From Eledone cirrhosa (lineage: Eukaryota), in contig OZ024740.1 of the NCBI GenBank assembly GCA_964016885.1, positions 232,500,001 to 232,564,000 of the forward strand: a DNA stretch of 64,000 nt, read 5' to 3'. The notes under the pieces are model-generated. The model saw only the letters and a list, made by a program, of their open reading frames with translations. It was not told where the DNA came from and did no database searches. This document shows positions 59,052 to 60,100 of the stretch, piece by piece (position 1 is the stretch's first letter; each line of letters starts with the position of its first letter). The translations under genes were made by a program, and so were the position numbers.

Positions 59052-60100
59052 AATAAACGGAAACAAATGAAACGAAATTTCATTTCCCACTCTTAGTACG
59101 GCTGTTACTTAAATATAATTATGTACGGTAAATTTGTAAACAAACATCCTGTATTAAGCCGTAGTGTCTAGCAACCATCGTTGCTCGTTTGTTCAACACT
59201 GACAAAGGAACGCTGTACTAGTTTCAACCTTATTAGCTATCGTCAGCAACGTATACCTTCCTGCCAGAGGATTGAACGTCTGAAAGTATATAGTTCCTTA
59301 TGCATATTAAGGGCTGAGTTGCCCAATTTGCATATCGAGTGGGTTAATTGGCCGGGTGCACCGAAAACGATAAACGGAAAAAATGAAACGAAATTTCATT
59401 TCACACTCTTAGTACGGCTGTTACATAAATATAAGTATGTATACGTACATACATATATGTATACAGACGTACAGTAGTATGTATGTATATATATATATAT
59501 ATATATATACATTAATACGGGATGTTTGTTTACAAACTCACCGAGCATTATAATAAATGTTCGGTGAATCCATACGTACATATATATATATCTGTGCATG
59601 TATGTATATATATATACATACTACTGTACGTCTGTATACATATATGTATGTACGTATACATACTTATATTTAAGTAACAGCCGTACTAAGAGTGGGAAAT
59701 GAAATTTCGTTTCATTTTTTCCGTTTATCGTTTTCGGTGCACCCGCCCGATTAACCCACTCGATATGCAAATTGGGCTACTCAGCCCTTAATATGCATAC
59801 GGAAACTATATACTTTAAGACGTTCAATCACCTGGCTGGAAGGTATACGTTGCAGACGATAGCTAATAAGGTTGAAACTAGTACAGCGTTCCTTTGTCAG
59901 TTCTGAACAAACGAGCAACGATGGCTGCTAGACACTACGGCTTAATACGGGATGTTTGTTTACAAATACACCGAGCATTATAATAAATGTTCGGTGAATC
60001 CATACGTACATATGTATATGTGTGCATGTATGTATATATATGTGCATACTACTGTACGCCTGTATACATATATGTATGTACGTATACATATATATATATA
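59052..60100. repeat. Diverged, circularly permuted relatives of the 466-bp monomer, in inverted arrangement
   Basis: Minus-strand copy 59052-59490 with intact HHR core (CTGACGA, 59210-59252); plus-strand 1.4 copies with ~430-bp unit (59512 vs 59942) and mutated core CAGACGA. Fragment also at 57180-57360. Confidence 0.9.

Follow-up and report, generated by a model that had tools for sequence, protein, structure and literature searches.

Newt satellite 2 is a tandemly repeated unit carrying a hammerhead ribozyme that needs a partner. It has also been credited with a promoter of the snRNA type, as cited in PMC2220036. Closer to the case presented here are the non-LTR retrozymes of metazoans, described in coral, mussel and axolotl (Cervera and de la Pena 2020, PMC7229834). 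The use of retrozyme circles as templates for reverse transcription, with Penelope-like elements (PLEs) as helpers, was proposed in PMC7229834 and PMC4209133, and a recent preprint regards animal retrozymes as non-autonomous derivatives of PLEs (Li, Clavereau, Pollet 2026, 10.64898/2026.07.22.740005). As for PLEs themselves, a purified PLE protein nicks and extends both strands of AT-rich DNA, starting internally at two neighbouring sites, the distance between which corresponds to the genomic 'tail'; uncleaved RNA is also used, and hammerhead mutants left insertion unaffected (PMC11167929). The concept of the tail comes from that work and from PMC8557442, in which tails and inverted, 5′-truncated partners are hallmarks of PLEs.

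Here we describe a repeat family of Eledone cirrhosa that was noticed in a 64,000-nt stretch of contig OZ024740.1 (positions 232,500,001 to 232,564,000, hereafter the window; Table 1). The family is built on a non-coding unit of 420-540 bp with one type I hammerhead, arranged in arrays at many loci. It has no ORF encoding a reverse transcriptase (RT) and no LTR (<550 nt; ~36% GC; the whole unit repeats head to tail), and it lacks the PLE ORF, a telomerase-like RT with a GIY-YIG nuclease, and is thus not an autonomous PLE. Judged by its sequence, the repeat is a metazoan non-LTR retrozyme, showing every testable defining feature of that class (PMC7229834), namely a short AT-rich tandem unit, one type I hammerhead and neither ORF nor LTR. 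It also resembles those retrozymes in co-occurring with PLEs and in the strong self-pairing of its predicted circle; circular folds are much more stable than 12 dinucleotide shuffles each, with z from -4 to -14, values that the AT hairpin inflates. The unit here (420-540 nt) is somewhat longer, and whereas cleavage and circles have been shown for the retrozymes of PMC7229834, here they are predicted from sequence.

Table 1. Retrozyme copies and associated features in the window, by position in the window.
Feature	Position	Strand	Remarks
Fragment of another abundant repeat family	36167..36293	-	joined to array 5′ end; itself ending in (TA)n
One-armed array, young subfamily A	36299..38951	+	5.7 units of 466 bp; proximal 3′ end into (TA)n
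First hammerhead of array	36323..36393	+	stem I ACGGUG/CAUCGU, core CUGAUGA
Short copy with two arms, no hammerhead	57177..57361	.	one arm with proximal end, other near distal site
Left arm, subfamily B	59053..59510	-	~1.3 units; distal (long) 3′ end into (TA)n
~58-nt 'tail' between both fixed 3′ ends	59053..59112	-	outer end of left arm only
Type I hammerhead motif, left arm	59196..59266	-	core CUGACGA from 59246
Octamer ATGCAAAT, left arm	59326..59333	-	88 nt upstream of core
Right arm, subfamily B	59512..60092	+	period 430; 5′-truncated at about phase 60
Octamer ATGCAAAT, right arm	59765..59772	+	
Hammerhead motif, right arm	59833..59903	+	core CAGACGA from 59853 (U4A)

The family is abundant, a 33-nt core pattern having 23,530 exact matches genome-wide against 0 for a reversed control. 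The 36-kb unit represents a genome-wide subfamily, A, and the 59-kb unit another, B; the two are 86% alike outside the ribozyme, counting aligned columns. Subfamily C has stem I GATG/CATC, and subfamily D has 845 exact matches. Family E (467 bp; 5,144 exact core matches; L182, L196-L212, L298-L300) is a distant homologue of A (alignment score 175 vs -31 ± 14 for shuffles), with fully paired stems and two-armed arrays of 20-38 units. Family H (310 bp; 9,161 exact cores; L061, L069, L263-L267) has arms of at most 27 units. Outside the hammerhead, H is not demonstrably homologous to A (alignment score -32 vs -43 ± 12 for shuffles), and the share of H in the covariation described below is therefore weaker evidence. 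Decayed older relatives near ~232.44, 232.46, 232.63 and 232.73 Mb (G000:C1) have the post-hammerhead hairpins and the tail in common, their helix III palindromes appearing different; a hammerhead motif guessed for a decayed relative gave 0 matches.

The initial annotation had taken the repeat for neither a simple local DNA duplication nor an assembly artefact, and rightly so: the insertions are dispersed and made via RNA, and the unit is not an artefact of assembly, since it is present in several haplotypes in DNA run X1. Runs X4 and X5, from other organisms (word share 0.89 and 0.83), have 4 and 0 contigs matching the non-AT part, so few that the presence of the element outside this species cannot be argued from them. 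The sequencing-run search gave no RNA run among the matches listed. Run X6 behaves as RNA, since the GT..AG intron of a ribosomal protein gene is spliced in it. The fully Watson-Crick stem I GATG/CATC makes up 76% of its hammerhead contigs (positions 36611-36965 of the window) vs 1% in X1. X6, whose contigs reveal neither ends nor strand nor circularity, gives a weak hint of expression, in which summed contig depth is no measure and one host transcript could suffice. In listings of the open full-text literature we found no paper on a cephalopod retrozyme, and none describing retrozymes with paired arms, editing scars or a pair of fixed ends.

The ribozyme is a canonical type I hammerhead with a 6-bp stem I and a 3-bp extension. 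Its stem II opens with U.U, as at the helix II base of HHR_Amex2, and its helix III, only 1-2 bp long and bearing the palindrome ACUAGU (in H, ACGCGU), is like that of axolotl HHR_Amex1 (PMC7229834). Rfam model HH9 matches with E = 0.027 in A and 1.5e-8 in E, both under the gathering score; that for A is the best Rfam match of the first hammerhead in the 36-kb array (Hammerhead_HH9). An Rfam scan of the whole window gave only AT-repeat miRNA look-alikes among the 150 of 304 matches listed. Subfamilies A-E and H retain every core position (11 of 11). An excess of conservation in the hammerhead over its flanks, a further expectation of the initial annotation, was modest at best: the core of A vs B gives p of about 0.19 (not significant) and that of A vs E about 0.04.

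The swap of GGTG/CATC in the array for GTTG/CAGC at 59 kb is present as first described and is a real G.U to U.G change, but it amounts to one subfamily difference, and the stronger covariation comes from the distant relative. In 227 A-D units, counted as units and not as independent events, the variable stem I pair has G (136), U (71) or A (17) on its 5′ side, and the 3′ side nearly always matches. Across 12 representatives, both sides have changed in 11 of the 16 pairs, and pairing holds in 94% of cells (34-52% in slid controls), a set in which related rows inflate the shuffle test. The proposed selection on the hammerhead fold is thus borne out across families. The accompanying core change from CTGATGA to CTGACGA is found in the minus-strand copy at 59 kb, but the plus-strand copy reads CAGACGA.

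With a short palindromic helix III, good cleavage needs a second hammerhead (PMC4209133, PMC7761336). When A and B were cofolded, their ACUAGU palindromes formed a modelled intermolecular helix, and tandem hammerheads are predicted to act as dimers through this palindrome. Upstream of the core, at 88 nt in A-C and 100 nt in E, lies the octamer listed in Table 1, possibly a candidate promoter element of the snRNA type; by analogy, it would fit a promoter like that of newt satellite 2. Neither family H nor the single D unit compared has the octamer, and one spreading E lineage has lost it.

The 36-kb array, of young subfamily A, has five identical full units, with one base changed in the first, and contains six hammerheads with cores at 36343 + 466n. 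The fragment fused to it in the opposite orientation may mark a chimeric insertion or a later event. It belongs to a very abundant repeat family (36167-36293 and 49240-49380) with two ends ~75 nt apart in (TA)n, in which no hammerhead was seen at these two places. The window is rich in (TA)n and in fold-back repeat ends, and includes at 9252-9737 (+) what we take, from its motifs, to be part of a mariner-like transposase. Other repeat ends form nearly perfect fold-back pairs at 16595-17119, 35617-35761, 40766-41214, 58499-58819 and 60227-60432, several of them with hammerhead-like cores nearby; these five are likely 5′-truncated, two-armed PLE insertions. At 19494-22025 (-) there is a broken PLE ORF with a CxxC motif before its GIY-YIG, resembling Neptune/Nematis as described in PMC8557442; this PLE family has its own hammerhead and a tail of ~58 nt.

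At 59 kb, the two copies are back-to-back arms of one insertion, with its long end at 59053 and its short end near 60090, the right arm stopping at, or a few bases before, the proximal (short) 3′ site and running into (TA)n. The arms are 94% alike mutually and 75-84% alike to the 36-kb array, in identical cyclic order; ~115 bp (the AT hairpin) are missing from the 3′ unit of the minus-strand copy. The left-arm hammerhead has stem I ACGUUG/CAGCGU, the palindrome ACUAGU and a stem II with U.U and a private G.G mismatch, and its cut is predicted after 59216. In the right arm, where the consensus cut position would fall after 59883, the invariant core base U4 is changed to A, and on sequence grounds this hammerhead is probably inactive. 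The G.G mismatch results from a C>G change in stem II common to both arms; the template had a damaged stem II already, and the insertion is an old, partly dead copy. Of the independent insertions proposed in the initial annotation, their dispersal via RNA is upheld, but these two copies are not separate events.

To see where copying starts and stops, we mapped the ends of 165 arms of A-D, 151 from motif-chosen loci and 14 from an unselected 464-kb neighbourhood, leaving out overlapping loci and one duplicated locus (L060). Seventy-six arms end at a proximal site near +251 and 65 at a distal site near +310 after the cut (A numbering), with 24 ending elsewhere. The sites are ~59 nt apart, 108 arms end at exactly two positions, and a TA run follows 126 of the 141 fixed ends. 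Among the 14 unselected arms, 13 follow this two-site rule. The 41 divergent (back-to-back) pairs comprise 30 that join a proximal to a distal end, 0 with two ends alike and 11 with an unclassified end; hence all 30 of 30 scorable pairs have one of each. No convergent neighbours within 1.2 kb were found among the mapped A-D arms. The same two-end rule holds in families E and H. The 5′ ends are scattered, evenly so outside the AT hairpin (chi-square p = 0.2), a pile-up at phases 122-134 having been excluded from this test because alignment across the palindromic AT hairpin overruns inversion joints. Retrozymes that show target-site duplications have ones longer than 4 bp; here a 9-bp target duplication is seen at one locus (L053), (TA)n targets hiding any duplication elsewhere.

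These ends change the view taken in the initial annotation, in which relatives of the unit start at different phases, keep the same cyclic order and are hence circularly permuted. The different starts and the common order are confirmed, but the end phases are fixed, with 141 of 165 arms at two sites. Fixed linear termini were what that annotation itself had named as evidence against permutation, and at the 3′ end such termini are what end mapping found. Free permutation is not supported: the 3′ ends lie at two priming sites of PLE type, and the start phases are 5′ truncations and inversion joints. From fixed ends together with PLE-type tails and partners it also follows that the 59-kb copies are one insertion. 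Varied start phases would be equally expected from a linear template.

The two fixed ends, one to each arm of a pair, are the 'tail' of PLEs. The EN+ PLE Poseidon PAc likewise has two adjacent internal priming sites downstream of its hammerhead (Frangieh et al. 2024, PMC11167929), and EN+ PLEs, Naiad/Neptune among them (Craig et al. 2021, PMC8557442), likewise have a tail at one end, an inverted 5′-truncated partner, AT-rich or (TA)n targets and random 5′ truncation (PMC11167929, PMC8557442). Unlike them, the element here has no RT or endonuclease, and its hammerhead is canonical whereas that of PLEs is minimal. Its tail is about 56-59 nt (~70 nt in E, ~33 nt in H) compared with 30-40 in EN+ PLEs, and its arms reach tens of units, unlike theirs. 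Back-to-back arms, two fixed 3′ ends and editing scars (see below) are not among the features described for retrozymes in the available text of PMC7229834. The link to PLEs is that of the 2026 preprint, which, as far as its available text goes, draws it from co-occurrence, pLTR similarity and phylogeny in Xenopus; here it comes from the insertion footprint, our searches having yielded no homologous pLTR.

Downstream of 20 GIY-YIG-like sites, covering 1.66 Mb of the 3-Gb genome and located with a motif that overlooked some ORF families, we found no autonomous PLE with a homologous terminal repeat, and one further PLE family inspected by eye had no terminal repeat matching the retrozyme. PLE ORFs nearby have other 3′ ends than the retrozyme. 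We therefore infer the enzyme from its footprints. Pfam named RT and GIY-YIG in 1 of 7 PLE-like ORF pieces. A GAGTR tail motif common to PLE families was tried and rejected (12 of 50 end clusters vs 11 for the reverse complement). L053 was likewise rejected as an autonomous partner: at L053:6370-7270 a two-unit retrozyme has inserted, antisense, within a PLE endonuclease ORF, and the composite is partly mirrored nearby. That the repeat is a retrozyme driven by a PLE is, in our judgement, almost certain.

We then asked what kind of template was copied. A 28-mer from just after the cut retains the preceding 8 nt in 22,698 of 26,047 copies (87%), and the exceptions examined (6/6) all have a mutated or variant hammerhead upstream. 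Nor do 5′ ends pile up at the cut, where 2 of 165 arms begin. Copying thus runs through the cleavage junction, from a template that was uncut or re-closed. Young insertions carry one haplotype over all units of both arms (18/18 full units in one E insertion), with arms 0.2 to ~30 units long. Rare insertion-wide changes favour A>G (20, vs 5 T>C, of 57), whereas unit-specific changes do not (112 vs 108 of 1018; Fisher p = 0.006 vs insertion-wide); where at least 3 units are covered, the insertion-wide counts are 15 A>G and 1 T>C. The privacy of three array-wide variants was rejected, since they mark micro-lineages in at least 7 loci (69, 469 and 285 units). Most insertion-wide A>G changes therefore belong to a lineage and do not record separate edits of the immediate template. 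In one E insertion, 111A>G occurs in 6/10 units of one arm and 0/10 of the other.

One locus, L294:830-6950 (G000:C1:160.405-160.411 Mb), was picked out by an alternating 482/484 spacing. Across 298 distinct units it was the sole hyper-scarred locus, and nothing comparable with T>C was seen. It consists of an A>G-scarred dimer repeated ~5.5 times, with both arms in register and a strict odd/even alternation over 11 full units. Compared with the nearest lineage, 12/12 changes in odd units and 5/5 in even units are A>G (17/17), and the 5′ neighbours of the scars are U (13), A (3), C (1) and G (0) against a background of 65, 40, 27 and 16, a bias that fits the preference of ADAR. The scar motif occurs 6 times in the assembly, every time at L294. 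Each arm finishes within an even unit bearing these scars, and the two fixed sites are used once each. The distance from inversion joint to long end, which a single pass covers, is 831 nt and falls short of the 966-nt period; thus the RT copied the scarred dimer at least twice before DNA duplication could act. The simplest template is a dimeric circle, but the RT may instead have re-jumped exactly on a single linear molecule, or have copied a source allele that this assembly does not contain. On balance, we lean towards reading L294 as the fossil of a single A-to-I-edited dimeric circle, which a Penelope-type RT primed at two sites separated by 59 nt and, going round it more than five times, copied into a single DNA break. 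For tandems in general, the 2026 preprint favours local DNA amplification, whereas here at least some look as if they were made during reverse transcription. The circular or multimeric RNA template first suggested from the window is probably right, but its support comes from array-wide haplotypes and L294 and not from the window itself; we consider circular RNA the likely template of the multimers.

The 59-kb locus is a single insertion, with two arms, of a retrozyme that encodes no protein; a PLE RT and GIY-YIG nuclease likely wrote it into (TA)n, probably from a circular RNA template. In this proposal, arrays of at least 2 units would be transcribed, perhaps from the snRNA-type octamer as a candidate promoter, and the tandem hammerheads would excise monomers, and sometimes dimers, for a host ligase to close, as in characterised retrozymes. 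The structured RNA would sometimes undergo A-to-I editing, as the A>G scars suggest. A PLE protein, a putative player beside the fixed ends and one-of-each pairing that we observe, would then nick both (TA)n strands and prime internally ~250 and 310 nt past the cleavage site, one per strand. Each cDNA would continue back across the cleavage junction for a random length, presumably by rolling-circle copying, before the arms are joined 5′-to-5′; their lengths and joints are seen in the genome. Inserted copies, as observed, finally decay, and some arrays grow further as DNA.

An unlikely alternative is that the PLE copies an uncleaved linear read-through transcript, that long or homogeneous arrays stem from later unequal DNA exchange, and that the hammerhead matters little. 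The indifference of purified PLE insertion to hammerhead mutants is in its favour, and 127 of the 165 sampled arms, having one hammerhead each, require no circle. Dead core variants, 252 at G5 and 317 at G12, are mostly single, but are common to adjacent units in L246 and L249 and to both arms in L251; cleavage is thus not always needed. As a check on whether dead cores ever span an array, the first 100 of the 252 G5 variants, inspected by eye, included 2 adjacent same-variant pairs, and the first 100 of the 317 G12 variants one pair and one inverted pair. For the control, the free position 7, the first 100 matches showed two pairs, an inverted pair and a triple. DNA-level expansion of arrays is real: L243, L244, L248 and L257 are retrozymes turned satellites, old one-armed arrays of 14 to >23 diverged units with dead hammerheads, of which L244, L248 and L257 have 6-7-unit higher-order repeats that mark such growth, and young H arrays have block duplications. 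Arrays with a dimer or trimer period in which an alternate hammerhead is damaged (L203, L250, L255, L056) fit dimer circles, and DNA duplication too. Linear templates and DNA growth probably both contribute. Read-through copying, however, leaves unexplained the tandem, identical 12-site scar sets at L294 without a source locus, the new haplotypes fixed in all units of both arms and the conservation and covariation of the ribozyme.

Still less probable is a hammerhead-cut linear monomer or dimer on which the RT, having reached the 5′ end, repeatedly jumps back to the 3′ end of that molecule, mimicking a circle without ligation. The same identical, in-register repeats would be expected, and the two arms that start exactly at the cut suit such a template, but so would truncations or indels at the cut, where the junctions are exact; moreover, most post-cut copies continue upstream, mutation accounts for the exceptions examined, and characterised retrozymes exist mainly as circles (PMC7229834). 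A DNA-only satellite or fold-back element carrying the hammerhead as a passenger, with DNA rolling circle or gene conversion as its means of spread, would suit the tandem and inverted layout and the satellite-like behaviour of some arrays, but is highly improbable and already largely refuted, since the strand-asymmetric A>G scars, the fixed 3′ and random 5′ ends, the one-of-each pairing and the compensatory changes point to an RNA step.

To conclude, the class of element is already known, while the footprints of its copying route are unusually direct. Both the inserting enzyme of animal retrozymes and the circle as template are proposed, and not shown, in the available texts of PMC7229834, PMC4209133 and the 2026 preprint, and the question of the circle extends to PLEs themselves, whose purified protein used uncleaved RNA (PMC11167929). 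In the family described here both priming sites are located with single-base precision, and following private sets of A>G scars across units and arms offers a cheap genome-wide test of circle copying. Tens of thousands of copies and very young lineages also make it a ready substrate for in vitro and cell assays. If our reading of L294 is true, the genome would here directly document the rolling-circle, target-primed reverse transcription of a circular RNA that a ribozyme had made, and RNA editing by the host would be a heritable source of mutation for this replicon.
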